Below, in pieces: positions 3,526-51,643 of a stretch of DNA of 64,000 nucleotides. The position numbers and the translations under genes are program-made. The DNA lies in NCBI GenBank assembly GCA_963664525.1, contig OY761535.1:3129242-3193241 (forward strand). Direction: 5' to 3'. The notes beneath the pieces were generated by a model. That model had not been told where the DNA came from and searched no databases. It saw nothing but the letters and a program-made list of their open reading frames with translations. This DNA is from Arenicellales bacterium (GTDB taxonomy: Bacteria; Pseudomonadota; Gammaproteobacteria; Arenicellales; JAJDZL01). Positions within the stretch are counted from its first letter, which is position 1. Each line of letters begins with the position of its first letter.

Positions 3526-3538
3526 TGTTCGATCAAAA

Positions 3539-4549: not shown

Positions 4550-4656
4550 CGATTCCAGTGTTTTATCAAGTTCTAGACTGAAACGACCCTAACCGACAAT
4601 TGATCGTTGACAGGACAATAGCTCATGAATTTGGAATGAAAACCCAGTCCAAGCAG

Positions 4657-7399: not shown

Positions 7400-7830
7400 T
7401 TTTTATCGAGGCTCCATTGAATTGGGAACAATTAATGTCGTCGTTTGCAGTGTTTCGCCTCTAAACGGGCGGGTAGCTGCCACAAAGCAAATCATTATAG
7501 TGAGTTGAATTTATCCTGTAGTTTCGAAATCAAAACGCAATTGTTTCTTCATAGGAATAATTCAGTCCTCTTTGCTTTTGATCAGGCAGTGGAAAACTTT
7601 TGCTAAACCCTGTGTCTGAAATTAGACTGATGGGACGCCGTGGTTTTTGGGCTGAGCGATCAGTGGAAAAAAGTACGATATGGAGTCAATGTAAAATGCC
7701 CGCAAAACCAAGCTACAAAATTTCGATCCAAGTTTTTCTTAAATTTCCTGTTTTGCGATAGCATCTGACACAAAACCCTCTGTACCGACTTTATTCAGCT
7801 TGCAAGTATGGCACAACAGCGTTGAACCCG

Positions 7831-9927: not shown

Positions 9928-11553
9928 ATGGTGAACAGCAGTGTAGAAATTCAAATGCAGGTCATGTGGAACCGGCTCATTTCGGTAGTTGAAGAACAAG
10001 CCATGACCTTGCTTCGTACCGCCTTTTCCACTTCTGTTCGCGAGGCTGGCGATCTTTCAGCGGGTGTGTATACCCCTGACGGGCGTATGCTGGCTCAAGC
10101 GATTACGGGTACACCCGGACATGTGAATACGATGTCAGAATCGGTTTTGCATTTTCTCAACGAGATTGAGAAAAACGAAATGTTCGAAGGCGACTGTTAC
10201 CTCACAAATGACCCCTGGAAAGGGACTGGACACCTGCACGACATTACGATGGTTGCCCCCACTTTCAAGGATGGCAAAATCGTGGCATTTTTCGCTTGCA
10301 CTGCACACGTTGTCGATATCGGCGGTCGGGGCTTTGGTGCCGACAGTCTATCGGTGTATGAAGAGGGACTGTTGATCCCAATTTTGAAATTTTCCGACCA
10401 AGGGCAAGTCAATCGTGATTTGATCAAGATTGTGCGAAACGCTGTGCGTGAGCCAGATAAAGTGATTGGTGATCTTTATTCGCTGGCTGCATGTAACGAA
10501 GTTGGACATCGTCGTTTGCTGGAAATGATGCGTGATGCTGGTTTAGACAGTCTGGATGCGCTGGGTGAATTTATTTTTTCCCGTTCACGTCGTGCAACCC
10601 AGGAACGAATATCAGCGTTGCTGCCAACTGGCAGCTGGCGAAACTCACTCGTTGTGGATGGCTATGATGAACCGATCAAGCTGGCTGTGAAGATTTCCCA
10701 TTCAGATGGGAAAGTGAATGTCGATTTCACAGGTACAGACCCGATCAGTCGCTTTGGCATAAACTGTCCGGTGAATTACTCCAAAGCATACGCCTGCTAT
10801 GCAATTAAGTGTGTTGTTGCGCCTGAAATACCAAATAATTTTGCATCTTTGGAACTGTTTGAAATTTACTCACCTGTCAACATACTCAATGCGAAACATC
10901 CAGCACCGGTGGCTTTACGACACGTTATGGGCCACATGATTCCTGATTTGCTCTTTGGTGCGCTGGCGAAAGCCTTGCCAGGTCAGATTCAGGCAGAAGG
11001 GGCCTCGGCACTTTGGAATGTTCATTTTTCAGTCCGTCCGGTCGATGGCAATGAAGGACAAAGTGCAGAAGTATTGATGTTCAATTCCGGTGGTGGCGGT
11101 GCCAGGCCGCAATTGGATGGAATGTCCGCGACAGCCTTTCCGTCCGGGGTTCAAACGATGCCGATCGAAGCTACAGAACATACCGGACCGATTGTAGTAT
11201 GGCGAAAGGAATTGCGCCCGGATAGCGGCGGTCTCGGAAGAACTCGCGGCGGTCTCGGACAGATTATCGAGATTGCACCAGCTAAGGGCTATGAGTTTGA
11301 TTTTTCTGCCATGTTTGATCGGGTGCACCACGCTGCCGCGGGTCGGGATGGAGGTGGCGCTGGCGCTGCCGGTGTTGTGCAGCTTGATGATGGCACCCGC
11401 CTTCGGCAAAAGGGCTGGCAACATGTCCCTGCAGGTAGTAGATTGATTCTCAAAGCGCCGGGTGGCGGTGGATTTGGACCGCCGCAAGAACGTTGTCCAA
11501 AAGCTGTCGAAAACGATTTGATTGCCGGTTACGTAAGCAAATCAGAAAACTAG
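9928..11553 (+). CDS. Hydantoinase B/oxoprolinase family protein (HyuB-like subunit)
   Basis: 541 aa: VMWNRLISVVEEQAMTLLRTAFSTSVREAGDLSAGVY..NDPW.GTGHLHD. This is the typical Hydantoinase_B N-terminus. The ATG directly follows the hyuA stop. Confidence 0.88.
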   Translation: MVNSSVEIQMQVMWNRLISVVEEQAMTLLRTAFSTSVREAGDLSAGVYTPDGRMLAQAITGTPGHVNTMSESVLHFLNEIEKNEMFEGDCYLTNDPWKGTGHLHDITMVAPTFKDGKIVAFFACTAHVVDIGGRGFGADSLSVYEEGLLIPILKFSDQGQVNRDLIKIVRNAVREPDKVIGDLYSLAACNEVGHRRLLEMMRDAGLDSLDALGEFIFSRSRRATQERISALLPTGSWRNSLVVDGYDEPIKLAVKISHSDGKVNVDFTGTDPISRFGINCPVNYSKAYACYAIKCVVAPEIPNNFASLELFEIYSPVNILNAKHPAPVALRHVMGHMIPDLLFGALAKALPGQIQAEGASALWNVHFSVRPVDGNEGQSAEVLMFNSGGGGARPQLDGMSATAFPSGVQTMPIEATEHTGPIVVWRKELRPDSGGLGRTRGGLGQIIEIAPAKGYEFDFSAMFDRVHHAAAGRDGGGAGAAGVVQLDDGTRLRQKGWQHVPAGSRLILKAPGGGGFGPPQERCPKAVENDLIAGYVSKSEN

Positions 11554-11606: not shown

Positions 11607-12542
11607 TCAAGTATTAGCAGTCTCCATTTGCCAATTCTTGATCCAAAATCGCCCGTTGCTACTCACAACAGACTTCGCTGCCGATCCCATTTCAAAGGCA
11701 ATTGTAGAAAGGTGATAGAGAGTCATCACCGCATCCTGTAGAATCTGATCGTTTTCCAGATCAATGACTTCAAGTTGCTGTGCCTTTGCTTCGTTGCGAT
11801 CGATTCGTCTACCGTGGCTTCCGTGTTGGTTGCCACCAAAGTGCCTCGCCACTTCTCTAGAAAGGGTTGCCGAGTCATTTTTTTCGGAAAACATGTGCTG
11901 CTCTAACCAACCTCGTATAAGCGTTTCACCATAGTCAATTGATTTTCTAGCTTCTTGAAGTAATGCGGGTCCAAAGGATCGTAATACCGGCACCCAAGCG
12001 TGAGCTAGGAGAGGATTCTCGGAAATTTGTTTTTTTGCTTCTTCGAATTGTTCGACAATGGAGTGCGCCGAAAAAGATCGAGCATTGATAATGAGTTGTG
12101 GGTCTGTTGGCCCCAACTGACTCTGACGACCCATCACGATTCTATCGCATCCCAGCGCAATCATCGTCCCTGCTGACATTGCATAGGTGGGAATCAGAAC
12201 GTCAATTGAGGAAAATTTACTTCGTAGATAATCTAGAATCGTCTGTGCAGACTCTGCCATACCGCCTGGTGTATGCAGAATCAAAAGGAGATTTTTACAG
12301 AAGTCATGACCATGAACTCCGGCCATAATGCCGTTAATGTCTTCCATGTTAATTGATGTGTAGAGCCCTGGGATATGAGGCTTTTGCAAAAAACTAGAAG
12401 CATAATACAAAACGTTGCGATCGTAGTGCTGTGCGATATGGTTTATCGATATCCGCATTTTCTCCGCGATATGCGTACCTCGTTGGCCCGGATCAACACG
12501 ATTTATTTCATCTTGAAGATCAGACCAACTTGGCATTTGCAT
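11607..12542 (-). CDS. SDH-family Clp-fold serine proteinase (ClpP/SppA-like)
   Basis: LLILHTPGGMAESAQTILDYLRSKF..LIPTYAMSAGTMIALGCDRIVMGRQSQLGPTDPQ is a ClpP/crotonase-fold serine-protease core with the nucleophile in AMSAG. The start is set at ATG 12542 (MQMPSWSDL..); the ORF track begins at TTG 12614. Confidence 0.7.
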   Translation of the reverse strand: MQMPSWSDLQDEINRVDPGQRGTHIAEKMRISINHIAQHYDRNVLYYASSFLQKPHIPGLYTSINMEDINGIMAGVHGHDFCKNLLLILHTPGGMAESAQTILDYLRSKFSSIDVLIPTYAMSAGTMIALGCDRIVMGRQSQLGPTDPQLIINARSFSAHSIVEQFEEAKKQISENPLLAHAWVPVLRSFGPALLQEARKSIDYGETLIRGWLEQHMFSEKNDSATLSREVARHFGGNQHGSHGRRIDRNEAKAQQLEVIDLENDQILQDAVMTLYHLSTIAFEMGSAAKSVVSSNGRFWIKNWQMETANT

Positions 12543-12744
12543 TACCTGTAATAACAAGTCCAATCGGATTATCCCAGCTGAATTTGGGGTGATTGAGTTT
12601 GTCCTGATCGGCAATGTCGGCTAAATCAGCAAGCCGGATGTATTCTTCGTACTGCTTAGCTGCTTTTCGGACAAGATCGGAAACTTCAGTTTCGCTGGGA
12701 TGAATTTTCACCTGCGAAGAATTTAAGTTCTCTTTGTCGTTCAT
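12520..12744 (-). CDS. Small hypothetical protein (74 aa) upstream of and overlapping the SDH protease gene
   Basis: A strong Shine-Dalgarno (GGAAGGA) lies 7 nt before the ATG. The 3' end overlaps the protease start by about 20 nt. No recognisable motif. Confidence 0.5.
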   Translation of the reverse strand: MNDKENLNSSQVKIHPSETEVSDLVRKAAKQYEEYIRLADLADIADQDKLNHPKFSWDNPIGLVITGNANAKLV

Positions 12745-13442
12745 ACAAATATCCTTCCGATTAAAATGGCTTGGTATGGTATCGAATCAAAAGCCCAATG
12801 CTTCCATTAAACTATAGGCAGAAGTCGATTTCAATCAAATTTGCGCTCATAAGCAGTGATGAACGAAAATTCGGTAAATTGACGCACGAACACCATTATC
12901 TTGGATTGAAGCGAATTACGAATTGAAGTTTTCGCAATTTGATTAAGTCTGAAAGGCGATAGCTATGTTTTTCTGGTTAGCACGCTGGATTTTTCAAATC
13001 AGCGACGCACGATTGATGGATCTCTTGATGAATGGAGTAGCAGACACATCGGATTATTTTATCAGTACAACTTTCCATGGGAAATTCGAATGAGTCAAAT
13101 CGAAACCATTCATAATGTTAGACTTACATGGCGAAGCAATTTCTATTGATCGGCTTTAACCGTATCTATCATTTGGTACGTGCTAACATTTTGCGTTGTC
13201 GCTTGAAATCAATTGGGTGATGGTGCGGCAGTAATGATGACACTGGGCTCCATACTACAGTACCTAGTTTCATTGGGAATCGTCTTCGCTTCAACACTTA
13301 GCGGATCATCGTCAACACTTGGTTGGCAGTCTGTTGATTTCGTGGCGGCCAATGCCCCAGATTTACACGGTAGATTGACTCGCAAAAGGACGTATAAATC
13401 AACGCGTTTTTCAATTTCTATCAGACATAGAGTTCGCAAATT

Positions 13443-14309
13443 ATGATTGCCAGTATGACCGGTTTCGCCCAGCGGACTGATAAAACCAATTGGGGTGAAA
13501 TAAACTGGAATCTTCGCTCATTGAATCACCGATCGCTCGACATCCATGTACAGCTCCCCGAAAAATTTCGGATCCTGGAAGCACAATGTCGTCGTAAACT
13601 TGTTGAAAGTTTCGATCGAGGAAGAGTCGACGCAAGCCTTACATTTACCCGGACTGAATCAGATTCGGACGCCTCGCTCCTTGATGACACAGTACTCCAA
13701 TCTTTGATTGCTTATGCCAGCAGCGTTCAACAGCATATGCCCGGTATCCGCGCGTTATCGGTTGCAGAAGTTCTCAGGTGGCCAGGCGTCATGCAAGCCG
13801 ATGCAAATCCTGAGCAGGAATTGACGGAGATTATTCTTCAATCACTGGGTGAAACCATCAATGATTTAGAACACGATCGCGCGAGGGAAGGCAAATTGGT
13901 CAAAGAAATTGTTGTTGAAAAGCTTGAACAATTCAAGGCCAGTTTAAGTGATGCAAGAAAATTAGTCCCCCAAGCGCAGCAGAGTCTTCACGATCGAATG
14001 GCGGAAAAGCTCGCAGAACTGAACATCGAAGTTGACCCAGGACGATGGGAGCAGGAAATTGGTTTGACCTTGGTAAAACTCGATGTAGCTGAGGAAGTCG
14101 ACAGGATCGACCTGCATGTTGCAGAATTTGAGCGCGCATTATCACAAGAATCTGTGGTCGGCAAGCGTTTGGGGTTTATTTTGCAGGAACTAGGCCGCGA
14201 AGTGAATACCCTGGGTTCCAAAACCATGCACTATCCCTTAAATGCCCTGGCCGTTGAGATGAAAGTTTCGCTTGAACAAATCCGGGAGCAAATTCAAAAT
14301 GTCGAATAA
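13443..14309 (+). CDS. yicC: YicC-family stress-induced protein
   Basis: MIASMTGFA...W..NHRSLDI. N-terminus and C-terminal GKRLGFILQELGREVNTLGSK motif are typical of YicC. The yicC-gmk neighbourhood is conserved. Confidence 0.9.
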   Translation: MIASMTGFAQRTDKTNWGEINWNLRSLNHRSLDIHVQLPEKFRILEAQCRRKLVESFDRGRVDASLTFTRTESDSDASLLDDTVLQSLIAYASSVQQHMPGIRALSVAEVLRWPGVMQADANPEQELTEIILQSLGETINDLEHDRAREGKLVKEIVVEKLEQFKASLSDARKLVPQAQQSLHDRMAEKLAELNIEVDPGRWEQEIGLTLVKLDVAEEVDRIDLHVAEFERALSQESVVGKRLGFILQELGREVNTLGSKTMHYPLNALAVEMKVSLEQIREQIQNVE

Positions 14310-21318: not shown

Positions 21319-22821
21319 TTAACGATTTCTCCACGCGATTTCTTCGCTGATGCGTCGAATTTTTTCACGTGCGATGGACACGGTATAAAAATCGCCTGTA
21401 TTGAGTTCTGCGTGCTTTAGCTGATTGAGGGCTACTTTGAGGTCGCCGATTTTGAAGTGATAGTCTGCATCTGCCAAGTAGGCTTCCCCGACAGCGCCTG
21501 ACTGGTTTGCGACTTGAGCATTGAGTTTAAGAAGTTGAATGTGTTCTACATTTGCGGGTAGATGTTTTCTGACGTATCGATTCGCTTGTTCAGCATCATT
21601 GATTTGCAACATGGCAAGGGCGACCATTTCGACGACAGCCGGGTGCGAACTATCGCTTTCAATCCAAGGTTTCAGCAAAGAAAGGACCGCTGCCGGCTTG
21701 TGTTGGTCCAAATCCAATTTGGCCAAGGCAAGAACGAACCAAAGGTTGTTTGGCTGCAGGGCAAGAAGTTCACCGAATTTCTGTCTCGCCTGAACCACAT
21801 CGCCATCTTTTGCCAGTGCTAACGCGTAACCATACTGATTGGCCAAGTGCTCGTTTCCTTCGCTGTCAGGCAACTGTTTTTCGAAAAATTGATAAGTTTT
21901 TTTCGGTTCCCAGTGAAACAACACTCGATTTCTGGCCTTAAAATACAAAAATTCGGGTGAAAGTTCTGAAAATCTACGATTTTGAAATTGTCGCAGTCTT
22001 GCATCGATGCTGGCGATTCGTTCCGGGGTAACGGGGTGAGTGTTATGGATATTGGACTGAACAATGCCTCGTTCGCGAATTTGTCTTTCGAGTTCCAACA
22101 TGAAGTCTTTGGCGTATTTCGGATCATAACCGGAGGCCACCATAATTTGGATCCCAACATTGTCTGCTTCTCGTTCATAGGCAAGTGTGTAGTCGATCAC
22201 GGACTCTACACGTGCTGCCTGAGACCCGACAATTGCAGCGATCCCAACATCGCCACCAATAAGAAGACCCGCCAAAGCCGCCAAAAGGGCCGGTGTTTGT
22301 GTCTCTTTATGCGTTCTTAAAAGCCGCGCCAAGTGGTCCTGTTTGAAATGGGCGAGTTCGTGTGCCATGACTGACACCAGCTCTACTTCATTTTTGGTCA
22401 GTTCAATCAGGCCGGAGTTGATAAAAAAAGTTGCGCCAGGTCCAGCGAATGCGTTGACGCTTGGGTCTTGGATCACGTAATAGTGAAGTGGATCAATCTC
22501 CATTTGGGCACCTGCGACCAATCGTTTTGCCAGTTGAATGACAAAATGGTTGATTTGCAGATCATCTGAGAATTGCTTGGTGTGACGCACGACACTGATA
22601 AACTGACGTGCCTGACGTTGTAAATTCTTGGTTGCAACTGGATTGTTGATTTGTGCGGACGCAATGCGTTCAAAACCCGGTGCCGTCATTAGGCACAGAG
22701 TCATCGCGCAAAGCAATCCAATCGCTTTTGGATTTGCAAGTTTAGTTATTCTGACGACAGAACGGGTGGTCATCAGCTTGGCATGGCATCGTGGTGAAAT
22801 ACTTAGAGAAGGTGAAGTCAA
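21319..22821 (-). CDS. M48-family metalloprotease with C-terminal TPR domain (BepA/YfgC-like)
   Basis: Zinc motif MAHELAHFKQDH (HExxH) and a downstream EREAD. The TPR-like C-terminal half carries ALAKDGDVVQARQKF.. and an N-terminal signal region. Confidence 0.85.
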   Translation of the reverse strand: MTSPSLSISPRCHAKLMTTRSVVRITKLANPKAIGLLCAMTLCLMTAPGFERIASAQINNPVATKNLQRQARQFISVVRHTKQFSDDLQINHFVIQLAKRLVAGAQMEIDPLHYYVIQDPSVNAFAGPGATFFINSGLIELTKNEVELVSVMAHELAHFKQDHLARLLRTHKETQTPALLAALAGLLIGGDVGIAAIVGSQAARVESVIDYTLAYEREADNVGIQIMVASGYDPKYAKDFMLELERQIRERGIVQSNIHNTHPVTPERIASIDARLRQFQNRRFSELSPEFLYFKARNRVLFHWEPKKTYQFFEKQLPDSEGNEHLANQYGYALALAKDGDVVQARQKFGELLALQPNNLWFVLALAKLDLDQHKPAAVLSLLKPWIESDSSHPAVVEMVALAMLQINDAEQANRYVRKHLPANVEHIQLLKLNAQVANQSGAVGEAYLADADYHFKIGDLKVALNQLKHAELNTGDFYTVSIAREKIRRISEEIAWRNR

Positions 22822-22959: not shown

Positions 22960-23352
22960 ATGAAATTTAATATTCTGGTCAATGAAGGCCCCTACACGCA
23001 TCAGGCATCGGATACTGCCTATCATTTTGCCAAGGCGGCAATTGATTGTGGGCACGAAGTGATTCGGGTGTTTTTCTATCACGATGGCGTCAACAATGCC
23101 ACGCGATTTGCTTCACCACCCGTTGACGATCGCGATGTTATCGTGCGCTGGACGCAATTGGCTGAAAGTTACGACATTGATCTGGCAGTCTGTGTTGCGG
23201 CTTCGTTGCGCCGAGGGGTACTGGGTGAAGATTCGGCGCACCAATTAGGCATTGCTGAGGTCAATTTGGACGATCACTTCAGGGTAGCTGGATTCGGGCA
23301 CTTTATTGAAGGGGCGATCGTCGCGGATCGGACCTTGGTATTTGGCGACTGA
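22960..23352 (+). CDS. dsrE: Sulfurtransferase DsrE (TusD homologue)
   Basis: 130 aa with MKFNILVNEGPY..; the conserved active-site Cys sits exactly at position 78 (LAVC78VAAS). It is the first gene of an E-F-H-C series. Confidence 0.85.
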   Translation: MKFNILVNEGPYTHQASDTAYHFAKAAIDCGHEVIRVFFYHDGVNNATRFASPPVDDRDVIVRWTQLAESYDIDLAVCVAASLRRGVLGEDSAHQLGIAEVNLDDHFRVAGFGHFIEGAIVADRTLVFGD

Positions 23353-23375
23353 AGACGATCGCGAAACGACAGTGC

Positions 23376-23759
23376 ATGACTAAACGTTTGATGTTCGTTA
23401 ATCGCAGGGCCCCTTATGGCACTGTCTATGGAATGGAAGCGCTTGATGCAACGCTTGCTGCATCCGCGTTTGGACAAGATCTGAGCATGGCGTTTGTGGA
23501 CGATGGGGTGTACCAGCTCAAACGGAATCAGAATCCGTCAGTACTGGGGATCAAACACTACACAAGGACATTTGCTGCGCTGGATGATTTTGGAGTTGAT
23601 CATATATTTGTAGAACAAGAATCGATGATGGAAAGAGGATTGAAACAGGAAGACTTGATGGAAATATTCCGTGAAGATGGCAGCGATGCGTTGACAATTG
23701 TTTCGTCTAGCGAACTTTCTGAAATCATGGAAACGCAGGACGTAATCTTTCAATTTTAG
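23376..23759 (+). CDS. dsrF: Sulfurtransferase DsrF (TusC homologue)
   Basis: 127 aa of the DsrE/F fold (LMFVNRRAPYGTVYGMEALDA), in position between dsrE and dsrH. Confidence 0.8.
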   Translation: MTKRLMFVNRRAPYGTVYGMEALDATLAASAFGQDLSMAFVDDGVYQLKRNQNPSVLGIKHYTRTFAALDDFGVDHIFVEQESMMERGLKQEDLMEIFREDGSDALTIVSSSELSEIMETQDVIFQF

Positions 23760-23767
23760 ATACGGCA

Positions 23768-24070
23768 ATGTTGCACACGATCAACAAATCTCCGACTGAA
23801 CGCCCCAGTTTGCTCAGCTGCCTGAGACTGGCGAAAGCAGGAAGTGACATTTTGCTGATTGAAGACGCGGTCTATGCAGCGCTTAGCGGGACGAAATTTG
23901 CCGAAATTATTGAAAATTCGCTAAACCACCATCAGTTTTTTGTGTTAGAAGCAGACTTGGATTGTCGCGGTTTTGGTCAATCTGAACTGATTGACGGCAT
24001 CACAATGGTTGATTACACGGGTTTCGTATCGCTGGCGGTGAAAAATGATAAGGTTCAGGCTTGGCTTTAG
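23768..24070 (+). CDS. dsrH: Sulfurtransferase DsrH (TusB homologue)
   Basis: 100 aa: MLHTINKSP....LSCLRLA..GSDILLIEDAVYAA. This is the typical DsrH/TusB N-terminus with a conserved Cys. Confidence 0.8.
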   Translation: MLHTINKSPTERPSLLSCLRLAKAGSDILLIEDAVYAALSGTKFAEIIENSLNHHQFFVLEADLDCRGFGQSELIDGITMVDYTGFVSLAVKNDKVQAWL

Positions 24071-24081
24071 GTGCGACAATA

Positions 24082-24414
24082 ATGACACTTGAGTTTGACG
24101 GAAAAGTTTATGAAACGGATACCGAAGGGTTTCTCACGAATCCAGAGGAGTGGTCGGCGCAATTGGCAGAAAAGATGGCGGCCGACGACGGATTTCAATT
24201 GGGCCCTGATCATTGGGAAGCGATCAATATACTGAGGGACTACTATGCGCAGTTCGCCATCGCTCCTCCCATTCGAATTCTTATCCGACACATGGGCAAG
24301 CGTCTGGGCAAAGAAAAAGCGAACAGCCCATACCTTTACGAACTGTTTCCGTTTGGGCCCGCCAAGCAGGCCTGCCGATACGCGGGGTTGCCCAAGCCGA
24401 CTGGCTGCATCTAA
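24082..24414 (+). CDS. dsrC: DsrC (two-cysteine C-terminal arm; TusE/DsrC family)
   Basis: The C-terminus PAKQACRYAGLPKPTGCI carries both the penultimate Cys and the Cys ten residues upstream. That pattern distinguishes DsrC from single-Cys TusE. Start set at ATG 24082 (MTLEFDGKVYETDTEGF). Confidence 0.85.
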   Translation: MTLEFDGKVYETDTEGFLTNPEEWSAQLAEKMAADDGFQLGPDHWEAINILRDYYAQFAIAPPIRILIRHMGKRLGKEKANSPYLYELFPFGPAKQACRYAGLPKPTGCI

Positions 24415-25000
24415 TCGGCTTCCAACCAGGCTGAAATAGGGCGCTGGACCACAACAGGATACAGTTTCAATGTCGAACGTTTTTGCGATTCTGTTTTATC
24501 TGGCCCTGTTGGTTCTCACTTGTGGAATTGTGTGGAAAGTCATCAGCTATGCGAGGACACCGATGCACAGTGTATTGCCAATCTCACCAGCACCTCGATC
24601 ATATTCTGGAGTGATTTTGAGAATTGCGCGCGAAGTTATTTTCTTTGAGAGCTTGTTTAGAGCAAGCAAATGGACGTGGCTTTTTGGCTGGGTCTTTCAC
24701 TATGCGCTCGCAGTCGTGTTGCTTCGTCATCTGTTTTTTGTTATCGACCCAATCCAACCATGGGTGATTGCTTTTTTTGTTCCAGGTGATATCGCAGCAT
24801 GGTTCATGGTGGCGTCATTGCTCGGGCTTTTGGCTCGACGAATTTTTGTGGAGCGGATTCGATATGTTTCGACGCCTTCTGATTACGCTATGCTGGGGCT
24901 GATATTGCTGATTGTTGCGTCGGGTCTGGCATTACGCTACAGCACACCAGTGGATATTATGGCGACTCGGGATTTCATGCTGGGATTAATTGGACTGTCT

Positions 25001-27016
25001 CGAGGGATTTGCGCTGTCAAAAAATCTAGACGAGGCAATGGTTTAGAGAAGGGTCGAAAAAACTTTCCCCCAACAAACGGCTGATTAGAGGGCTTTGAGT
25101 CGATTCAGCATTGATTTTGGCGAATTTCACCCCAACGTCAATTACCCGCCTGCTGGTGCAACGAGGTTTCCCCAAAACCTCTACTATACAGTAATAATGT
25201 CTTTATTAACATATACATAGAGTTGACATTGGCGCCACCATGGTGTATCATTCATGAGCATAAACAACCACATCCATGACCCAATGGAAATCAAACACCA
25301 TGGCGACAAAAATAGAAACCAGCCTTTTTTCCTGGAATAATCCGCAACAACTGCCAAGACTGCAAACACTGGCCCGTGTGCTGGAGATTTTACCGTATCA
25401 AGCGTTGGTTGAGGCCCTGTGTGAAAAACGCGGCCGCGGCCGAAACGATTTCCCGGTCGAAGCGATGTTTCGTCTGGTGATTGCCGGTGTGGTGCTGCAA
25501 TATCCTTCTGCGGCAGCCTTGCTGCGCAACCTGGAAACCAACCTGAGTCTGGCCCAGATCTGTGGCTTCAACCCGTTGCCAAGACAGCAACAGTCCAAAA
25601 CGGTGGTGCATGAGTCGTCGCAAGGACCGGTGACGTTCGAGACCATTGACTACCCACAGCGCATCACGTTGCCGGATGACTGGGCCTTCAGTCGTTTCCT
25701 GACCAGTATGCTGGAGCTGTTGGCCCAGCGAGATTATCTCAAAGAGATGTTTGAGCAACTGCGCGAACAATTGCGGGTGGTGGTGCCCGATTTTGGATGC
25801 TACCTGGCCTACGACGGAAAAGCAATCCAGAGTCATTCCACCGGTCGGGTGAAGCACAAAAGCGGTTACAGTTCAGACCCGGATGCCACCTGGGGCAAAC
25901 ATGAGAGCAAAGGGGTTGACAAAAAGGGTCGTGCCTGGAGCAAAGTCAAAGAATGGTTTGGATTTCGCTTGCACGCCATTGTGGATTCAGTGAACGAGTT
26001 GCCGGTGGATTATCGTGTGACGACGGCGAGCGATGGTGAGGCGGTGGTGCTGTCACAGATGCTCAAAGAGATGGACGAAACCCATCCGCAGATTCTCGAA
26101 CGCACAGAGCAGTTAAGTGCCGATCGCGGGTTGGATGTCAAGGAGTTGTACCGGGCGCTGTTCGACGATTACCAGATCGAGCCGGTAATTGATAACCGTG
26201 ATCTTTGGCGTCAGGAAAAAGACGAGGGCAACTATGATCCACAAAAGCCGATCTTGAGAATGCTCAACGGTGGCAAGCGCATTGATAACATTGTCTATGC
26301 GGAAGATGGGACGCTCATGTGCCGGTGTCCGCACACTGACACGGAGCGCGAGATGTATTTTATGGGCTATGAGAAAGATCGGGGGACCTTAAAGTATCGC
26401 TGTCCTGCCAAAGCCGGTGGTTATCAGTGTGCTGGTACGCAACAGTGTCTGCGATACGGCCGCTCGAAGGCGCACCGGTATGGTCGCACGGTGCGAATCA
26501 AACTGGATCAGGCCAATCGCAGGATATTTACGCCGACACCGCGCAACACGTACAAATGGAAGCGCAGTTATGCGCGGCGCACGGCGGCTGAGCGGTTTTT
26601 CTCTCGCATCGCTCAGGGCTACAATTTTGATCACCACTATGTACGTGGACTGGTCAAGATGCAGGCCAAAGCGTCGCTGGCCATGGTGGTTGGACTGGCG
26701 ATGGCGATTTTGCACATTCAAGCCGGTCAGGCGAACAACATGCGCTCACTGATCCGACCGATTGCGTTGCTTGATACTGGCTAAGGGTCGCGTTGTATTG
26801 TGAATTGACTTATCGTAGCGTGGCTGCGAGGGCTGGGCGCGTCTTGATACCAGTAAAATTGACACAAATATGAACAAACCGCATTTCAGACAAAATATTC
26901 GACGCGATTGGCTTGGTCGACGGTCTGTGGAAGATGATTATTGCCCCGTCAGTGCCCTGGCGGGCCAACGAGTCGGCGTGGCCGGACGCGAAAATGGCTA
27001 CAACGCAAATCCCTCG
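25001..27016 (+). mobile_element. Insertion sequence (2,016 bp), IS4/IS5-superfamily (IS1182-like) with one DDE transposase gene
   Basis: IRL at 25001-25017, CGAGGGATTTGCGCTGT, matches the reverse complement of 27000-27016 at 16/17 positions. There is a 3-bp direct repeat, TCT, at 24998-25000 and 27017-27019. By eye the interior is GC-richer than the flanks. Confidence 0.88.
25276..26784 (+). CDS. DDE transposase (InsH-N/DUF772-type N-terminus, IS4/IS5 superfamily)
   Basis: 502 aa. The N-terminus RGRNDFPVEAMFRLVIAGVVLQ resembles the transposase DUF772 region. A Cys-rich insert (CRCPHTD..YRCPAKAGGYQCAGTQQC) is present. The C-terminal RRTAAERFFSRIAQGYNFDHHYVRGL motif is typical of IS5/IS1182-type enzymes. 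Confidence 0.85.
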   Translation: MTQWKSNTMATKIETSLFSWNNPQQLPRLQTLARVLEILPYQALVEALCEKRGRGRNDFPVEAMFRLVIAGVVLQYPSAAALLRNLETNLSLAQICGFNPLPRQQQSKTVVHESSQGPVTFETIDYPQRITLPDDWAFSRFLTSMLELLAQRDYLKEMFEQLREQLRVVVPDFGCYLAYDGKAIQSHSTGRVKHKSGYSSDPDATWGKHESKGVDKKGRAWSKVKEWFGFRLHAIVDSVNELPVDYRVTTASDGEAVVLSQMLKEMDETHPQILERTEQLSADRGLDVKELYRALFDDYQIEPVIDNRDLWRQEKDEGNYDPQKPILRMLNGGKRIDNIVYAEDGTLMCRCPHTDTEREMYFMGYEKDRGTLKYRCPAKAGGYQCAGTQQCLRYGRSKAHRYGRTVRIKLDQANRRIFTPTPRNTYKWKRSYARRTAAERFFSRIAQGYNFDHHYVRGLVKMQAKASLAMVVGLAMAILHIQAGQANNMRSLIRPIALLDTG

Positions 27017-27209
27017 TCTCCGACAATACTTCCAAGTCACGCAATGCTATATTTACATCTGGCAAGTGTGTCAATTTTGGCATTGATTTTTCCATTTAGC
27101 AAACTGATTCATTTTCCTGGATACTTTTTCAGTCCTGCGCACAATCAGAAATATTCAGCCTCGAAAATCAAGATCGGTGGCCGATAGACCGCGTCGGTGC
27201 GTTCTTTAC

Positions 27210-27716
27210 ATGACTATGATTAGACACTGTACACCAGACGATTTCGATCGCATACTTGCTATCATCAACAAGGCTGCACAAGCCTATAGGGGCATTATTC
27301 CAAACGATCGGTGGAAAGAGCCATACATGCCCGCTGAGGAACTCGCGGACGAAATTACTGCTGGAGTCACTTTCGACGGCTACGAAATGACCGAAGTGGG
27401 GCTGGTAGGTGTGATGGGTGTTCAGCTTGTCAAGGATGTAGCATTGATCCGCCATGCTTATGTTGCTCCTGAAAATCAGCGTTCAGGAATTGGATCTACT
27501 CTGCTGAACGAGCAATGTGCAAATCTGGATTGTCCGATCCTGGTCGGTACCTGGGCCGCTGCCGATTGGGCAATTGCCTTTTACCAGCGCCATGGTTTCA
27601 AGCAGGTATCGATGACGGAGAAGTCAACATTGTTGAGACGGTACTGGACCATACCAGAACGCCAGATCGAGACTTCTGTTGTGCTTGCTAATGAACGATG
27701 GCGCCTCTCACCATGA
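27210..27716 (+). CDS. GNAT-family N-acetyltransferase
   Basis: Acetyl-CoA motif A, PENQRSGIGSTLL, plus AIAFYQRHGF. ATG 27210 was chosen so that the gene starts after the dsrM stop. Confidence 0.8.
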   Translation: MTMIRHCTPDDFDRILAIINKAAQAYRGIIPNDRWKEPYMPAEELADEITAGVTFDGYEMTEVGLVGVMGVQLVKDVALIRHAYVAPENQRSGIGSTLLNEQCANLDCPILVGTWAAADWAIAFYQRHGFKQVSMTEKSTLLRRYWTIPERQIETSVVLANERWRLSP

Positions 27717-28384
27717 GCGAATTCTCCTTGAATAAAGATACGATACAGGCGCAAGAGGTGTCGGCAGCTACGATTGAGAACTATAACCGTATAGCGCTTG
27801 CTTTTTGTAAAGGCACGGAGAATCATGATGTCAGTCAGAACATCGCTGCCTTACTTGACGCGATCAAGGATGACGGTCCACACGTCATTCTCGATTTTGG
27901 CTGCGGGCCCGGTCGGGATCTTTGCCAATTTAAAGCACTCGGCCACGAGGTGGTCGGTCTGGATGGTTCAAGCGAGTTTGTCGAAATGGCCCGAGCTAAA
28001 TCGGGATGTGAGGTGCTCCATCAAGATTTTCTCAACCTAGATTTACCATTCGCTCGCTTCGATGGGATATTCGCGAACGCTTCTCTTTTTCACATTCCGA
28101 TCAGTCAACTCGACCGAGTCCTGGGCAACCTCGCTGCGACGCTCAAATCTGAGGGCGTATTGTTAAGCTCAAACCCGAGAGGCAACAACGAGCAAGGTTG
28201 GGTCGATGGGCGATACGGTTGTTTCCATGATTTGGAAACATGGCGTGCCCACGTTCGCGCCGCGGGTTTTCGCGAATTGCATCACTACTATCGACCGACT
28301 GGGCGACCGCGAGTGCAACAACCATGGCTTGTCACAGTCTGGCGTAAAAATACTGAAGTCAGTTCGATTAGCATCTCGGCGTAG
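27713..28384 (+). CDS. Class I SAM-dependent methyltransferase
   Basis: Motif I VILDFGCGPGRD, then an acidic residue at GLDGS. ATG 27713 overlaps the GNAT stop in an ATGA arrangement; ATG 27698 is an alternative start. Confidence 0.8.
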   Translation: MSEFSLNKDTIQAQEVSAATIENYNRIALAFCKGTENHDVSQNIAALLDAIKDDGPHVILDFGCGPGRDLCQFKALGHEVVGLDGSSEFVEMARAKSGCEVLHQDFLNLDLPFARFDGIFANASLFHIPISQLDRVLGNLAATLKSEGVLLSSNPRGNNEQGWVDGRYGCFHDLETWRAHVRAAGFRELHHYYRPTGRPRVQQPWLVTVWRKNTEVSSISISA

Positions 28385-28549
28385 GCATTCTCGACCATAA
28401 GTTCCCATGGGTTTAATACCCTGGAATTTCATTGATGCAGATGAACATAGCCTTTCATCTAGAAATTTATACACGTATGGTAAAACCGATCCGGGTATAA
28501 AATCAATAAATAACAATAGGATGACGTCAGTTCAACGGTAAATCTCTGG

Positions 28550-30010
28550 ATGAAGAACCAGCGAAAAACAGGTCGCTTGCGAAACATGGAAAATCTTAAA
28601 AAATCAGTGGTTAAACCGCATTTTCGCTCAGATACCAGCGAATCGGGTCAACTGGCTGATAACTGGCAGGAAATTGCGATCGAAAAGCTCGGTGAACAAG
28701 TTCGATCAAACCGGGCACTTAAGGTTTTCTTGGACAGTTGTGTGAACTGTGGTGCTTGCACTGACAAGTGCCATTATTTTTTAGGTGACGGTGACCCGTT
28801 GAATATGCCAGTTGCCCGCCAAGACTTGATTAGAGGAGTTTATCGCCGGCACTTCACGGTGGCAGGAAAATATTTTCCGAAATTGGTTGGAGCAAGAGAA
28901 TTGACTGAAGAATTACTTGAGGACTGGGGAAAGTATTACTATCAGTGCTCACAGTGTCGCCGTTGCTCCGTGTATTGTCCCTTCGGTATTGACACAGCAG
29001 AAATTACCATGGCTGGTCGCTCAATTCTCGACGCCATCGGGATGAAGCAGCAATACATTCATTCGGTGCTTGACAATGTTGACAGGGCCGGAAACAACCT
29101 GGGCATGATAGGGCCCGCCATCAAAGATACGTTGAATGGTTTGGAGGAAGACGTTTTCGAGGAAACTGGGGTGCATGTGAAGTTCCCGCTTGACGAAGTT
29201 GGTGCTGATGTATTGCTGCTGGTGCCGTCGGCAGATTTATTTGCTGAACCTCATGTTGACGGTTTAATTGGCTGTGCCAAAATTTTTCACCAGCAGGGTA
29301 TCCATTGGACGCTGTCTACCTCAGCGTCGGAAGCGGCCAATTTTGCACTGTTCGTGGGGGACACTGAAAAAATGCAGGCAATGGCTGAACGAGTCAAAGA
29401 CGTGGCGTTAGAGCTTGGTGTGAGAAAGGTTGTTGTTGGTGAGTGCGGCCACGCGTGGCGAGTTGCAAGCAGTTATTGGCCGCAGTTGCTGGCATCGGCT
29501 ACTTCGAACCAATCTGCCGGATTCGAAGTATTGCATATTTGCGAGTTGACTTATGACTTACTTTGCCAACAATCACTGCAGCTTGACAAGTCCGTGCACC
29601 GAGACAAGGTCATCACGTATCACGATTCGTGCAATGTGGCACGCGGTTCACGTATGGGCGAACATCCGCAGGATGTGTACGACATTCCGCGTGCATTGCT
29701 GAAGGCGGCTTGCGAAAACTTCGTTGACATGGCTCCAGAATCGATTCGCGAGCGTACCTATTGCTGCGGCGGAGGCGGCGGTCTTTTAACCGATGAGTTG
29801 ATGGAGATTCGGGTCAGTGGTGCTTTGCCCCGTGTCAGTGCATTGGAGGAGGTTATCACCAATCAGGGCGTCACACATATGGCAGCAATCTGCGCGATCT
29901 GCAAGAGTCAGTTCAGTTCCGTTTTACCTCGCTACGGATTGGACATGAGAATGATCGTCAGTTTACATCAGATTGTTGGAGATGCTGTGGTGTTGAGTGC
30001 GGACAAGTGA
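28550..30010 (+). CDS. dsrK: DsrK (HdrD-like Fe-S / CCG-domain catalytic subunit)
   Basis: Two ferredoxin-type clusters (CVNCGACTDKC, CSQCRRCSVYCP) and CCG-domain cysteines (HDSCN.., YCCGGGGG). Confidence 0.85.
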   Translation: MKNQRKTGRLRNMENLKKSVVKPHFRSDTSESGQLADNWQEIAIEKLGEQVRSNRALKVFLDSCVNCGACTDKCHYFLGDGDPLNMPVARQDLIRGVYRRHFTVAGKYFPKLVGARELTEELLEDWGKYYYQCSQCRRCSVYCPFGIDTAEITMAGRSILDAIGMKQQYIHSVLDNVDRAGNNLGMIGPAIKDTLNGLEEDVFEETGVHVKFPLDEVGADVLLLVPSADLFAEPHVDGLIGCAKIFHQQGIHWTLSTSASEAANFALFVGDTEKMQAMAERVKDVALELGVRKVVVGECGHAWRVASSYWPQLLASATSNQSAGFEVLHICELTYDLLCQQSLQLDKSVHRDKVITYHDSCNVARGSRMGEHPQDVYDIPRALLKAACENFVDMAPESIRERTYCCGGGGGLLTDELMEIRVSGALPRVSALEEVITNQGVTHMAAICAICKSQFSSVLPRYGLDMRMIVSLHQIVGDAVVLSADK

Positions 30011-30545
30011 TCCAGTTGCTGCCCAATATCTTTTGCATCGTACGGAATAGTTGATCATGGAAAATCAATCCGATTTCTTGGAGGGTTCAGATCAATTTTG
30101 CTTCGAGATTATCGGCCTAGGCTTTGGAAGTAGGGTCTTCCCTAATTTTCGTGGGTAGCGGAATTATTGAGTGAGTTCAATGTTGTTTTCGGGCGCGGTT
30201 CATTGCGTGTGTTATTCTTCGAATTAACTCCTCTGCAACACGCCGAACATGCGCACGCGCATTTGAGCCCGTTCTTGTCCTTGGAGAATTTGTTAGTTCT
30301 CCATTGGCCCCGACCGGCCAGGTCAACTTAGCGCTATTGCTGTTGGTACGATTCGGTTTGCTTCTGTGATATCGGTGTTATCCTCATCTACTTACTATCT
30401 GGCTTCTCGAAAAAGTGCTTGGTAACTACAGAATATTATTGCTAATATCCCAATTGCTTTAGTATTTGTGTTGGATGAGTAATTCTTGGTTAGCGTTAGA
30501 CCTCAGCCTACCTTGGGGCAATTATTACCAAAATATTCGCTTAAA

Positions 30546-30605
30546 CGTATATATTGATATTATACGGAGAATAGTATATTTAGTTTTTATACGCTAGATC
30601 GTATA
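30546..30605 (+). promoter_or_regulatory. Candidate HipB operator pair in the hipBA promoter region
   Basis: Two inverted repeats built from the same hexamer: CGTATA-N9-TATACG (30546-30566) and TATACG-N6-CGTATA (30588-30605). They end 17 nt before the hipB ATG. Function is inferred by analogy with HipB autoregulation. Confidence 0.45.
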
Positions 30606-30621
30606 TAGAGAGGCGGTAAGG

Positions 30622-30867
30622 ATGAGAAATATCATACGTAGTAATAAAGATCTTGGTGAATCAATCCGCCGTGCACGCAAGAATAAAGGTTTACGGCAGG
30701 TTGATGTCGCTCGAAAAGCCTCAGTACGCCAGGCACTGGTATCTGACCTTGAGAACGGTATGACTACGGCAAGGTACGACACCGTGATCAAGGTGCTGGC
30801 CGCTCTGGATATGGACTTGTCTATCGTCCCGCGCCGCAAAGCCGGATTCGATCCAACGGAGTATTAA
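30622..30867 (+). CDS. hipB: HipB-type XRE-family antitoxin
   Basis: 81 aa with an HTH (IRRARKNKGLRQVDVARKASVRQALVSDLENG). Its stop abuts the hipA start. Confidence 0.85.
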   Translation: MRNIIRSNKDLGESIRRARKNKGLRQVDVARKASVRQALVSDLENGMTTARYDTVIKVLAALDMDLSIVPRRKAGFDPTEY

Positions 30868-32166
30868 GTGGGACGTAAACGCCACAGACGCATTCTTGAT
30901 GTGTATGTCGGCTCGAGTAAAGTTGGCATGTATTCCCGTGAGCCTAGCGGTGCTATATCGTTTCGTTATGATCCGGACTGGTTGTCATCCGATAAGGCAT
31001 TTCCTATTTCCGTGTCCATGCCGCTGACTGATCGTGTCTGGTCAGGGGAAAGTGCGGCCAACTACATTGACGGGTTGTTGCCAGATGATCGTACCGTAAG
31101 AGAAAAAATTGCTGCCCGTGAGCAGGCAGACAGTTCTGGAATATTTGATCTCCTTGCAGTTCTCGGACGTGATTGTGTAGGAGCACTGCGTTTTATCCCT
31201 GAGGGACTTGATCCTGGTGACCCAACGAATATGGAATATAGACCGGTAAGCGATGATGAAATTGCTGCTCGGATCGCTTCCCTCGCCATCACGCCACTCG
31301 GTGTCCATCTCGATGAAGATGATTTTCGTATCTCCATTGCAGGCATGCAAGAAAAAACGGCCTTTCTCCGGATCAACAATCAATGGCATTTACCACTTGG
31401 GCCTACACCCACCTCTCACATCTTCAAGCCTGCGATGAAAAAAGGCCCGGCAGGCGTCGATTTTTCTGATACTCCCTGGAATGAGTGGCTCTGTCTCGAA
31501 CTGTGCCGTGCCTTGGGTCTTGAGTCGACAAAGGCCGATGTGTTGGTATTCAATGATAAACCCGTAATCGCCATTGAGCGATTCGATCGGGTCTGGAGGG
31601 AAAGGGTACTATACCGGAAACCGCAGGAAGATATGTGTCAGGCCTTAGGGGTTCCACCAGTGCGGAAGTACCAAAGTGATGGTGGTCCGGGCATTGTCGA
31701 CGTACTGAAGTTCCTGAACGGTGCGATTGTCCCATATGAAGACCGCATGGCCTTTATGAAGACACAGGTCGTGTTCTGGTTGTTGGCAGCCATTGACGGC
31801 CATGCCAAAAACTTCTCAATATTTCTCTCACCAGATGGCTACCGACTCACGCCTCTATACGATGTGGTTTCAGCCGCTCCCTGGCCGGAATTTCCGGATC
31901 AGAAGATTAAGCTTGCAATGGCCTTGGGGAGCAAAAACTATTATCGCTTACATCAAATTCAACTCCGACACTTCTATCAGACAGGTCAAAAAGCAGGGTT
32001 ACGTGAGCAGGATATGGATCTTATCTTTTCTAGCCTGCTCGCGAAGATGGATGATGCAATAGCACAAACGGCTGCTTTGGCTTCCAATGCCGGAGTGCCA
32101 GCATCAACAACAGAATTAATTTTGGCTAGTGTGAGTAAACGCGCCAAGATAATAGGAAAGGAGTGA
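30868..32166 (+). CDS. hipA: HipA-family serine/threonine kinase toxin
   Basis: 432 aa. HipA N-terminal coupling region (LDVYVGSSKVGMYSREPSGAISFRYDPDWL, LLPD), SIAGMQEK and catalytic DGHAKNFS motifs. GTG start directly after the hipB TAA. Confidence 0.9.
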   Translation: MGRKRHRRILDVYVGSSKVGMYSREPSGAISFRYDPDWLSSDKAFPISVSMPLTDRVWSGESAANYIDGLLPDDRTVREKIAAREQADSSGIFDLLAVLGRDCVGALRFIPEGLDPGDPTNMEYRPVSDDEIAARIASLAITPLGVHLDEDDFRISIAGMQEKTAFLRINNQWHLPLGPTPTSHIFKPAMKKGPAGVDFSDTPWNEWLCLELCRALGLESTKADVLVFNDKPVIAIERFDRVWRERVLYRKPQEDMCQALGVPPVRKYQSDGGPGIVDVLKFLNGAIVPYEDRMAFMKTQVVFWLLAAIDGHAKNFSIFLSPDGYRLTPLYDVVSAAPWPEFPDQKIKLAMALGSKNYYRLHQIQLRHFYQTGQKAGLREQDMDLIFSSLLAKMDDAIAQTAALASNAGVPASTTELILASVSKRAKIIGKE

Positions 32167-32279
32167 TACACTTCAATGGATTACAAGGGCGGGAGAAATG
32201 CTGCAGCTTGTATAAATTGAAACCGTCGAGGCTGACTCGTTTTCGTTGACCGATGCACTTTCACACTTTTGCCCGCTCA

Positions 32280-32939
32280 CTAATCCCCATATTTATCTGT
32301 ATGCGTTTCATATCCGACGATCAGAACATCTGCTGGTCGCAGGGCAAAAATTCCATTACAAACGACCCCAGCTTGATTATTGAGTATTGACTCAATTGAT
32401 ACTGCATCTTTGAGGTCAAGGTTGCGTGCATCAATGATGATGTTGCCATTATCTGTGGTAAACCCGATACGCAGTTCAGGCAAACCACCCAGTTTGATGA
32501 TTGCGCGACTCACCAAACTTTGTGCGAGCGGGATGACTTCAATTGCAAGCGGAAAATCCCCGAGTACATCCACGACCTTGGTTTCATCGACGATACAGAT
32601 AAATTTTTCACTTGCAGTTGCAACAATTTTCTCACGGGTTAGAGCACCGCCGCCACCCTTGATGAGATGCTTGTTGCGGGTGGCTTCATCAGCACCGTCA
32701 ACATAAATCGGTAAAGTTCCGGTTCGGTTCAAGTCCAGTATTGGAATTCCATGTCCGCGCAAGCGATCTTCAGTAGCTTTGGAACTTGCAACAGCACCAT
32801 CAATCTTGCCTTTGATTTTGGGTAGCAAATCAATAAATTCATTGGCCGTAGAGCCGGTTCCGACACCGACAACATCGCCGATATCGATAAAGTCGAGTGC
32901 CGCTTGTGCCGCGTTTTTCTTCATTCGTTCGAAATTCAT
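32280..32939 (-). CDS. rpiA: Ribose-5-phosphate isomerase A
   Basis: [19 protein letters not shown] and [12 protein letters not shown] motifs; 219 aa. Confidence 0.93.
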
Positions 32940-40235: not shown

Positions 40236-40431
40236 CCAGATATTCAGATGCCGCCCGCACGTGCCGTACCAGCCCCCATAGCCTTGAACCGCCATGTTCA
40301 AGTGGGCAACTGGTGAGACAGCTTCAGGTGCTTTGCAACACGGCAAGCTCACAACAGCTGGCTCAGTTTGTTCCCTGGTAAAGTCTTTAGGTTCGAAGGA
40401 AATTAGACCGGTTCAAACACTACAGGCGGCG
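40236..40431 (-). ncRNA. ssrS: 6S RNA (ssrS); ends approximate
   Basis: The gap between zapA and the cyclo-ligase gene has no plausible ORF. On the minus strand it reads ..CACUUGAACAUGGCGGUUCAAGGCUAUGG..GCGGGCGGCAUCUGAAUAUCUGGCG. This matches the E. coli 6S 3' half (..CCUUGAACCAAGGGUUCAAGGGUUACAGCCUGCGGCGGCAUCUCGG..). A 5' CGCC / 3' GGCG closing stem is possible. Synteny with zapA-ssrS-ygfA supports the call. Confidence 0.65.
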
Positions 40432-42512: not shown

Positions 42513-42533
42513 TTAATCGAAAAGAGAATCACA

Positions 42534-43826: not shown

Positions 43827-43856
43827 ACCATTTTCTCAATTGGAATTTCCCGCCTA

Positions 43857-51634: not shown

Positions 51635-51643
51635 CAGTTGTCT

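Follow-up and report, generated by a model that had tools for sequence, protein, structure and literature searches.

The stretch of DNA analysed here, a 64,000-nucleotide window from an Arenicellales bacterium (assembly GCA_963664525.1, contig OY761535.1, positions 3,129,242 to 3,193,241 of the forward strand), carries the genes dsrE, dsrF, dsrH, dsrC, dsrM and dsrK at positions 22960-30010, with no dsrAB beside them. From comparisons of these sequences with those of relatives we lean, with modest confidence, towards regarding the six genes as a conserved, selection-maintained, stand-alone module that derives from the oxidative Dsr system and is not a decaying relic. A first-pass annotation of the window had left two readings side by side, a stand-alone module working without sulfite reductase or the decaying remnant of a larger operon. 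The first of these is supported at the level of both the locus and the clade, by 12 relatives and a sister lineage, by the ratios of nonsynonymous to synonymous substitution (dN/dS) and by the residues kept in the proteins.

Synteny and descent of the module

The gene content dsrEFH-dsrC-dsrM...dsrK, as first annotated, was borne out by the list of open reading frames (ORFs) and by profile searches. The order and orientation dsrE-F-H-C-M-K are the same as in the oxidative operon dsrABEFHCMKLJOPNRS of Allochromatium vinosum, and the module proteins were 40-60% identical to their Allochromatium palmeri counterparts. Unlike the A. vinosum operon, the module has no adjacent dsrAB, dsrL, dsrO, dsrP or dsrN (dsrJ was not searched separately). 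When the 64-kb window was searched by tblastn with A. palmeri queries (E<1e-8), which did not include DsrJ, no DsrA, B, L, O, P or N was found; the span free of these genes extends 23 kb upstream and 34 kb downstream of the locus. The earlier claim that dsrAB is missing upstream and dsrL, O, P and N downstream thus holds across the window. The neighbours named in that annotation were also confirmed, namely a divergent BepA-like protease gene upstream and, downstream, an ORF-poor gap of 0.6 kb followed by hipBA.

Loci of relatives, labelled Arenicellales, were taken from database matches to DsrK and from a species-representative genome collection, and the best 80 DsrK loci were compared. The closest database match to the window DsrK was P0001 (474 amino acids, 100% identical), on a 3.46-Mb contig, and further matches, on megabase contigs, graded from 82% to 65% identity. 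Sequences of the clade include the chromosomes and contigs OZ253563.1, OZ244730.1, OZ241380.1, OY762925.1, CAXXJB010000001.1, CBDEVD010000006.1, CBDAUA010000004.1, ERZ25084491 ctg366981, ERZ24894574 ctg6934l, ERZ25070917 ctg125712 and ERZ19489075 contig_4271, several of them complete chromosomes. Twelve other Arenicellales genomes (L001-L010, L084 and L085/L086) had all six genes intact in the order dsrEFHCMK, and an M48 protease gene lay directly upstream on the opposite strand in 13 of 13 such short-module genomes, the window included. No homologues of DsrA, B, L, O, P or N were found within 10 kb on either side of the module in those 12 genomes, DsrJ not being queried separately; of the genes called in the relatives from dsrK up to the next conserved neighbour, none matched DsrJ, although no separate dsrJ search was made. 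A sister lineage, L012, carries dsrEFHCMK without the M48 neighbour, and there no dsrAB was found within 10 kb upstream and no dsrL within 1.9 kb downstream. All other recovered loci (about 70, with DsrK identities of 54-65%) had dsrAB directly upstream and nearly all had dsrL-O-P-N downstream. This full type includes pelagic Arenicellales (L087), which have the closest full-type DsrK (64% identity). Full dsr operons have also been reported from Arenicellales sponge symbionts elsewhere (PMC12625764). The comparison of synteny suggested by the first-pass annotation therefore shows that the layout, there called non-canonical, is common in this clade, although no published description of it was found.

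The flanks of the module in the relatives were syntenic with those in the window and comprised htrA, a two-component pair, pterin-4a dehydratase, a folK-folP fusion, rpiA and a NERD helicase. These flanking genes are core genome. Copies of rpiA with 78-86% identity adjoin dsrK in L001-L004, and rpiA is the ancestral downstream neighbour in the subclade of the window. The M48 protease was considered as a possible part of the module, but this was unsupported: the folK-folP fusion and the pterin-4a dehydratase gene further upstream are equally conserved, and the protease gene is absent in L012. Its adjacency is most likely plain synteny and not a sign of function. In L085/L086 the M48-dsr block is flanked on one side by DUF447, DUF6513/pterin-binding and flavoprotein genes (3415-5926, minus strand) and on the other by PhyH and panB (12402-14224, plus strand). 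PhyH and a pan gene also flank the module in L012, which from sequence hints at a shared ancestry of these neighbourhoods. The dsrM gene of L086 (9307-9999, plus strand) is intact with a TTG start and was not called by the source gene caller, so automated surveys would score it as missing.

Trees were constructed by neighbour joining on Kimura distances, with 1,182 columns in the concatenation. As the PDB held no DsrK or DsrM structure (the sole match reached 28 bits), the DsrM and DsrK trees were unrooted. The short-module clade was recovered with bootstrap values of 0.90-1.00 for each of the six proteins and of 1.00 for the concatenation, in which L012 was its sister (0.94). The mean concatenated distance was 0.41 within the short group and 0.41 within the full group, compared to 0.71 between them, placing the short group on a long stem. 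Among strongly conserved sites, seven had the same state in the full type and in E. coli Tus and a different one in the short clade, and none showed the reverse; L012 mostly retained the full-type state at these polarised sites. Two residues mark the clade: DsrK Cys230, found in 92% of short-clade and 0% of full-type sequences, and DsrM His218 (100% and 0%). A histidine at DsrM position 229 in window numbering has the opposite distribution, as 92% of full-type sequences have it and no short-clade sequence does. Thus, unlike the A. vinosum type, the module proteins form a separate derived clade with signatures of its own. By DsrC, too, the clade is discrete: among the best 120 DsrC matches it comprises about 37 clusters (90% identity), and DsrC identities then drop from 71% to 65% with nothing in between. 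Read most simply, the sequences point to a canonical oxidative dsr operon as ancestor; its neighbouring genes were lost, after which the six proteins would have co-diverged. As to the phylogeny that the first-pass annotation had proposed as a check against placement among Tus proteins, the clade stands apart from E. coli Tus by neighbour joining; E. coli Tus was its only outgroup, and two of the six trees had no root.

The organism might still be an ordinary reverse-Dsr oxidiser with a split gene set, having dsrAB, dsrL, dsrJOP and dsrN elsewhere on the chromosome. Split arrangements do occur among the recovered loci, since L075 and L066 have no dsrL/JOPN after dsrK and L014 has no dsrEFH at the usual place, and the full operons of other Arenicellales point the same way. 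According to a published report (PMC3397948), the second DsrC cysteine is also hardly found outside organisms that have DsrAB. Against this, none of the 14 genomes with the bare layout had dsrA, B, L, O, P or N nearby over the distances given above (10 kb in the relatives, 1.9 kb downstream in L012, 23 and 34 kb in the window), the six proteins share a long common branch (0.71 to the full type against 0.41 within groups), and the clade-specific changes fall at sites that Dsr and Tus proteins otherwise share, which suggests a changed set of partners. We therefore regard a split gene set as unlikely, but as an explanation to be taken seriously.

Dsr-type and Tus-type features

The module proteins were compared with Dsr and Tus proteins using phmmer against the PDB, where E. 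coli provided the one Tus reference. DsrE scored 170.8 bits to A. vinosum DsrE compared to 99.5 bits to E. coli TusD, and DsrH 98.3 bits to A. vinosum DsrH compared to 50.6 bits to E. coli TusB; identity was 0.57 to the full type against 0.40 to TusD. DsrC scored 146.5 bits to A. vinosum DsrC and 43.5 bits to 7syb, an entry deposited as 'Sulfurtransferase' that we take to be TusE-like. With the TusE equivalog model NF008562 (cut-off 191) the window DsrC reached 125.8 bits and A. palmeri DsrC 129, whereas E. coli TusE reached 243.7. The tandem DsrE, DsrF and DsrH proteins all exceeded the cut-offs of TIGR03012, TIGR03010 and TIGR03011, respectively, and matched the Pfam families DsrE, DsrE and DsrH.

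The two C-terminal cysteines of DsrC and the Cys78 of DsrE, both pointed out in the first-pass annotation, were present as described. DsrC ends with CRYAGLPKPTGCI and contains both cysteines, and its C-terminal arm (...QACRYAGLPKPTGCI) is invariant in the clade, while E. coli TusE has one cysteine (...QATKIAGLPKPVKCI). The arm thus carries the two cysteines and the AGLPKPTG-C motif by which DiSCo separates DsrC proper from TusE/RspA (PMC8477390). At the DsrH cysteine the DsrH/TusB alignment reads SLLSCLRLA / SLESCLKFA / FAALLRLL, with no cysteine in E. coli TusB. The active-site residues DsrE Cys78, DsrH Cys20, DsrC Cys100 and Cys111, the DsrK ferredoxin and CCG cysteines and the DsrM haem histidines are found in the module as in A. 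vinosum. DsrE Cys78, the DsrH cysteine and both DsrC cysteines were invariant in 11 aligned short-clade sequences (the window and L001-L010). Fourteen of 14 DsrK cysteines universal among 86 sequences, located in two CX2CX2CX3C ferredoxin motifs and the CCG domain, were kept in the window, and the four DsrM haem histidines (77, 87, 190 and 208) were conserved.

In A. vinosum, DsrE-Cys78 passes sulfur to DsrC-Cys111, and DsrE-Cys78 and DsrH-Cys20 are needed in vivo (PMC3397948). DsrH-Cys20 and DsrC-Cys100 were found by Stockdreher et al. to be dispensable for mere sulfur transfer (PMC3397948). Since the clade strictly keeps the DsrH cysteine and the second DsrC cysteine, its chemistry is expected to be of the Dsr type and not that of a plain relay. 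Together with the PDB scores and the missed TusE cut-off, this supports the assignment of the module proteins as Dsr-type and not Tus-type, in agreement with the earlier annotation.

The similarity to E. coli TusBCD-TusE raises the alternative of a housekeeping tRNA 2-thiouridine relay, in which DsrEFH and DsrC would act as TusBCD and TusE feeding MnmA, and DsrMK would keep DsrC reduced. The families are homologous, the gene order E-F-H-C corresponds to tusD-C-B-E, Cys78 of the D/E subunit is conserved, no dsrAB lies near the module, and the module, like the Tus genes, has a housekeeping context, being set in a stable core genome (folKP, rpiA, M48). In L012, moreover, a bifunctional mnmC gene (1283-4824, plus strand; 654.7 bits, cut-off 540) lies about 4.4 kb upstream of dsrE and adjoins a SufS-like class-V aminotransferase gene that scored below its cut-off. 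However, this linkage is limited to L012, with three unrelated genes between. To E. coli Tus the module proteins have just 36-48% identity and far lower bit scores, A. vinosum Dsr being much the closer match, and the differences of the short clade from the full type lead away from E. coli Tus. The DsrH cysteine and the second DsrC cysteine (CysB) are strictly conserved although unnecessary for Tus-type transfer, and a quinone-linked membrane complex such as DsrMK, here under strong purifying selection, is absent from Tus systems and does not fit into the Tus pathway as it is known. With two DsrC cysteines, DsrMK attached and a DsrC below the TusE cut-off, the module does not have the sequence features of TusBCDE, and a tRNA thiolation role appears quite improbable.

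Complexes of DsrMK without DsrJOP are known from Gram-positive sulfate reducers and archaea (PMC10504309). Like the module, these have a two-subunit membrane complex beside dsrC and no periplasm-facing DsrJOP; they differ in pairing with reductive DsrAB, whereas the module belongs to the oxidative proteobacterial lineage, is linked to dsrEFH and has no dsrAB nearby. Stockdreher et al. 2012 (PMC3397948) listed Methylococcaceae, Marinobacter and Lawsonia as exceptions that have a two-cysteine DsrC/TusE homologue and lack DsrAB. These share the two-cysteine DsrC without DsrAB with the module, and the paper is silent on linked dsrEFH or dsrMK; none of the three taxa turned up in the best 80 DsrK loci or in the 120 best matches to DsrC. 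DsrEFH in ten genomes lacking DsrAB were counted as false positives in the DiSCo study (PMC8477390), and DsrE-like proteins of Gammaproteobacteria without Dsr proteins are placed at the root of the DsrE tree by Neukirchen et al. 2023 (PMC10504309). No published dsrEFH-dsrC-dsrMK unit kept without dsrAB was found in the literature, which offered only generic or unrelated statements. A Halomonas dsr case was rejected as KEGG-style naming of Tus genes, and the 'Ca. Taurinisymbion' papers and their supplements contained no mention of dsr genes.

Insertions and selection in the window genome

The first-pass annotation had noted an insertion sequence (IS) in dsrM and foreign genes between dsrM and dsrK. 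Both were confirmed, and the exact ends of the IS could be added (Table 1). The element has 16-bp terminal inverted repeats (GAGGGATTTGCGCTGT) with one mismatch and is flanked by a perfect 5-bp target duplication, GTCTC, at 24997-25001 and 27016-27020. By its domains, inverted repeats and target duplication it is of the IS5/IS1182 type; the IS1182 NCBIfam model gave 102 bits against a cut-off of 270, and no family-level equivalog cut-off was reached. Its GC content was 0.54 compared to about 0.48 in the surroundings, it is single-copy in the window, and it is missing from the loci of the relatives. Judged from its intact transposase, near-perfect inverted repeats and perfect target duplication, the insertion appears to be recent.

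When the IS was excised in silico, joining 24470-25001 to 27021-27187, an uninterrupted DsrM of 232 amino acids was obtained whose C-terminus agrees with those of the relatives. With the DsrM model the restored protein scored 124 bits, where that of L001, a relative, reached 112 and that of A. palmeri 169; since even this canonical A. palmeri DsrM stays below the NCBIfam cut-off of 300 bits, the cut-off is uninformative for oxidative types. Four haem histidines within one intact dsrM gene were found in all 13 relatives and in the restored sequence, but not in the window genome as it stands. The IS cuts after codon 177 (177/178) and parts His77 and His87 from His190 and His208, the 3' piece falling inside an ORF at 26870-27187. 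The present gene therefore cannot yield a di-haem protein, and the IS disables the DsrM membrane anchor. It probably knocks out downstream transcription as well.

The other two insertions leave the dsr genes whole. On either side of the GNAT-methyltransferase pair, dsrM ends and dsrK begins with complete, native sequence, and in the relatives the dsrM-dsrK spacer consists of a few bases or an overlap, indicating that the pair is a clean 1.4-kb insertion in the spacer. The two genes overlap by 19 bases and have no recognisable mobile-element ends. Downstream, rpiA starts about 30-90 bp past dsrK in the nearest relatives (360 bp in L004), while 2.27 kb separate them in the window. The 611-bp stretch at 30011-30621 holds no notable ORF and no Rfam match and resembles nothing in the relatives or elsewhere in the window, and it probably came in together with hipBA. 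None of the inserted genes (IS, GNAT, methyltransferase and the hipBA block) had a homologue in the locus of any relative, and nucleotide and tblastx comparison found no similarity to the relatives in the 611-bp gap, the dsrM-dsrK insert or the M48-dsrE spacer. No RNA family of Rfam matched in the locus; the promoter scan of the locus performed no better than shuffles, and the terminator scan gave nothing decisive.

Table 1 Features at and around the dsr locus (window coordinates)
Feature	Position	Strand	Evidence
M48 (BepA-like) protease	21319..22821	-	Pfam Peptidase_M48; BepA best NCBIfam match, 239 bits vs 570-bit cut-off
dsrE, sulfur-binding subunit, Cys78 present	22960..23352	+	TIGR03012, 143.9 bits
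dsrF	23376..23759	+	TIGR03010, 113.6 bits
dsrH, with cysteine equivalent to A. vinosum DsrH-Cys20	23768..24070	+	TIGR03011, 98.9 bits
dsrC, 110 amino acids from ATG	24082..24414 (ORF opens at TTG 24061)	+	TIGR03342, 143.5 bits
dsrM 5' part, codons 1-177 plus one base, with His77 and His87	24470..25001	+	Best NCBIfam match DsrM
Insertion sequence, 2,014 bp	25002..27015	+	Inverted repeats and direct repeat boundaries
DDE transposase in IS	25276-26784	+	Pfam DDE_Tnp_1, DUF772, DDE_Tnp_1_6
Right GTCTC copy (27016-27020), then dsrM 3' part (27021-27187; His190, His208, native stop)	27016..27187	+	
GNAT acetyltransferase	27177..27716	+	Pfam Acetyltransf_7/10/1
S-adenosylmethionine (SAM)-dependent methyltransferase	27698..28384	+	Pfam Methyltransf_25/11
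dsrK, catalytic CCG-domain iron-sulfur subunit	28550..30010 (probable start ATG 28586)	+	NF045796, 534.7 bits (cut-off 400)
Block between dsrK and rpiA: 611 bp non-coding, hipB, hipA	30011..32279	+	
hipB	30622-30867	+	Pfam HTH_3
hipA	30868-32166	+	Pfam HipA_C and Couple_hipA
rpiA	32280..32939	-	Pfam Rib_5-P_isom_A

Selection on the module was evaluated across the clade. In two pairs with unsaturated synonymous sites dN/dS was 0.015-0.15 across all six genes (0.09-0.15 for dsrF, which is intact in every relative), and in saturated pairs the proportion of nonsynonymous differences (pN) was far below that of synonymous differences (pS). Of 457 sites that are invariant in the clade, the window copy has changed at two, both times conservatively; most relatives have more such private changes. 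Purifying selection and the small number of private changes indicate that the module of the clade is functional and that this genome was damaged recently and by the insertions alone. There are three lineage-specific insertions, one of them disruptive, and the integrity of the operon is eroding in this lineage only; the other five genes of the window copy are still pristine. Of the earlier suggestion of a decaying remnant, the derivation from a full oxidative operon and the insertions stand, but the decay does not, given 2 private changes at 457 sites. A non-functional relic left after loss of dsrAB and drifting to deletion, with the IS and the foreign genes as symptoms, is very improbable and is contradicted for the clade as a whole: although its origin from a full operon is supported and the three insertions are as it would predict, 13 other genomes, with 52-91% protein identity to the window copies, have every one of the six ORFs intact, dN/dS is low with all cofactor and active-site residues kept, the window copy has no excess of substitutions at invariant sites, and the IS is young.

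Possible function and significance

Homology with characterised proteins allows a tentative proposal for the function of the module. Persulfide sulfur would be loaded on Cys78 of DsrE in a DsrE2F2H2 hexamer and from there handed on to DsrC at its penultimate cysteine (CysA). DsrK would then act on the CysA/CysB pair as its substrate through the iron-sulfur site of its CCG domain, and two electrons could move between DsrK and the quinone pool by way of the two DsrM haems b. The oxidising direction is favoured, in which DsrC persulfide or dithiol would be converted to trisulfide or disulfide with electrons going to quinone, because the host apparently makes ubiquinone and the module is of oxidative descent. 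Reduction of sulfane sulfur by ubiquinol would be uphill, which also favours oxidation. DsrEFH-DsrC-DsrMK may constitute a self-contained, DsrAB-independent pathway that takes up protein-bound persulfide sulfur, in effect a protein-persulfide:quinone oxidoreductase coupling the DsrC cysteine pair directly to the quinone pool; we put this forward as a possibility somewhat short of an even expectation, and with less assurance than the existence of a maintained stand-alone module.

Two gene groups of the window bear on the host's metabolism. A block of ygfB (UPF0149), pepP and two FAD monooxygenase genes (ubiH/ubiI-like) lies at 41970-46315 on the plus strand, and the sequences of this block suggest ubiquinone synthesis in the host. 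A cluster at 49481-53011 (plus strand) begins with the methanethiol oxidase gene mtoX (49481-50866; NF052453, 738 bits, cut-off 650), 19.5 kb from the dsr module, followed by genes for SCO1/SenC (50885-51634) and a MauG-like di-haem peroxidase (51638-53011). Methanethiol oxidase is O2-dependent and releases H2S. The ubi block and the O2-dependent oxidase together indicate that the organism is likely aerobic and ubiquinone-based, and H2S from methanethiol oxidase is a possible sulfur source for the module. The clade is assumed to be heterotrophic.

Several points weigh against a stand-alone, DsrAB-independent module. The direction of electron flow is inferred; to our knowledge there is no outlet for DsrC trisulfide without DsrAB, so that the chemistry after DsrMK is speculative. 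Split dsr clusters exist, as in L075 and L066 without dsrL/JOP after dsrK and in L014 without dsrEFH between dsrB and dsrC, and the absence of dsrAB covers the 64-kb window and 10 kb on either side in the relatives, not whole genomes. The trees are distance-based, with E. coli Tus as their sole outgroup. Finally, three insertions in one 7-kb operon could mean that the module is dispensable in this genome.

The only hints at lifestyle in the window were an ankyrin-repeat protein (56472-57620, minus strand; Ank_2, 209 bits) and a Spondin_N-domain protein (48408-49268, minus strand). Both are eukaryote-like proteins of kinds often reported in sponge symbionts. With the existence of sponge-symbiont Arenicellales, they allow the guess that the organism is host- or animal-associated. 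Elsewhere in the window, a 6S RNA was detected at 40248-40431 on the minus strand (Rfam RF00013, 61.3 bits, gathering threshold 46.4) beside a 5-formyltetrahydrofolate cyclo-ligase gene, which is the usual ssrS-ygfA arrangement, and a pair of hydantoinase/oxoprolinase A and B subunit genes at 7822-11553 on the plus strand.

Two-cysteine DsrC, DsrMK and DsrEFH serve as markers of DsrAB-dependent sulfur metabolism. The clade described here keeps these six genes apart from dsrAB, and so has either a DsrAB-independent job for DsrC and DsrMK or stably split reverse-Dsr genes. If the pathway is DsrAB-independent, it would break the rule that ties two-cysteine DsrC and DsrMK to DsrAB, and a piece of an energy pathway would have been kept for a new role after loss of its core enzyme. 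If the genes are stably split, marker-based surveys would misread these genomes. The IS-disrupted copy in the window represents a natural dsrM knock-out beside intact relatives. Either outcome matters for the reading of sulfur cycling from metagenomes, especially in host-associated Arenicellales.

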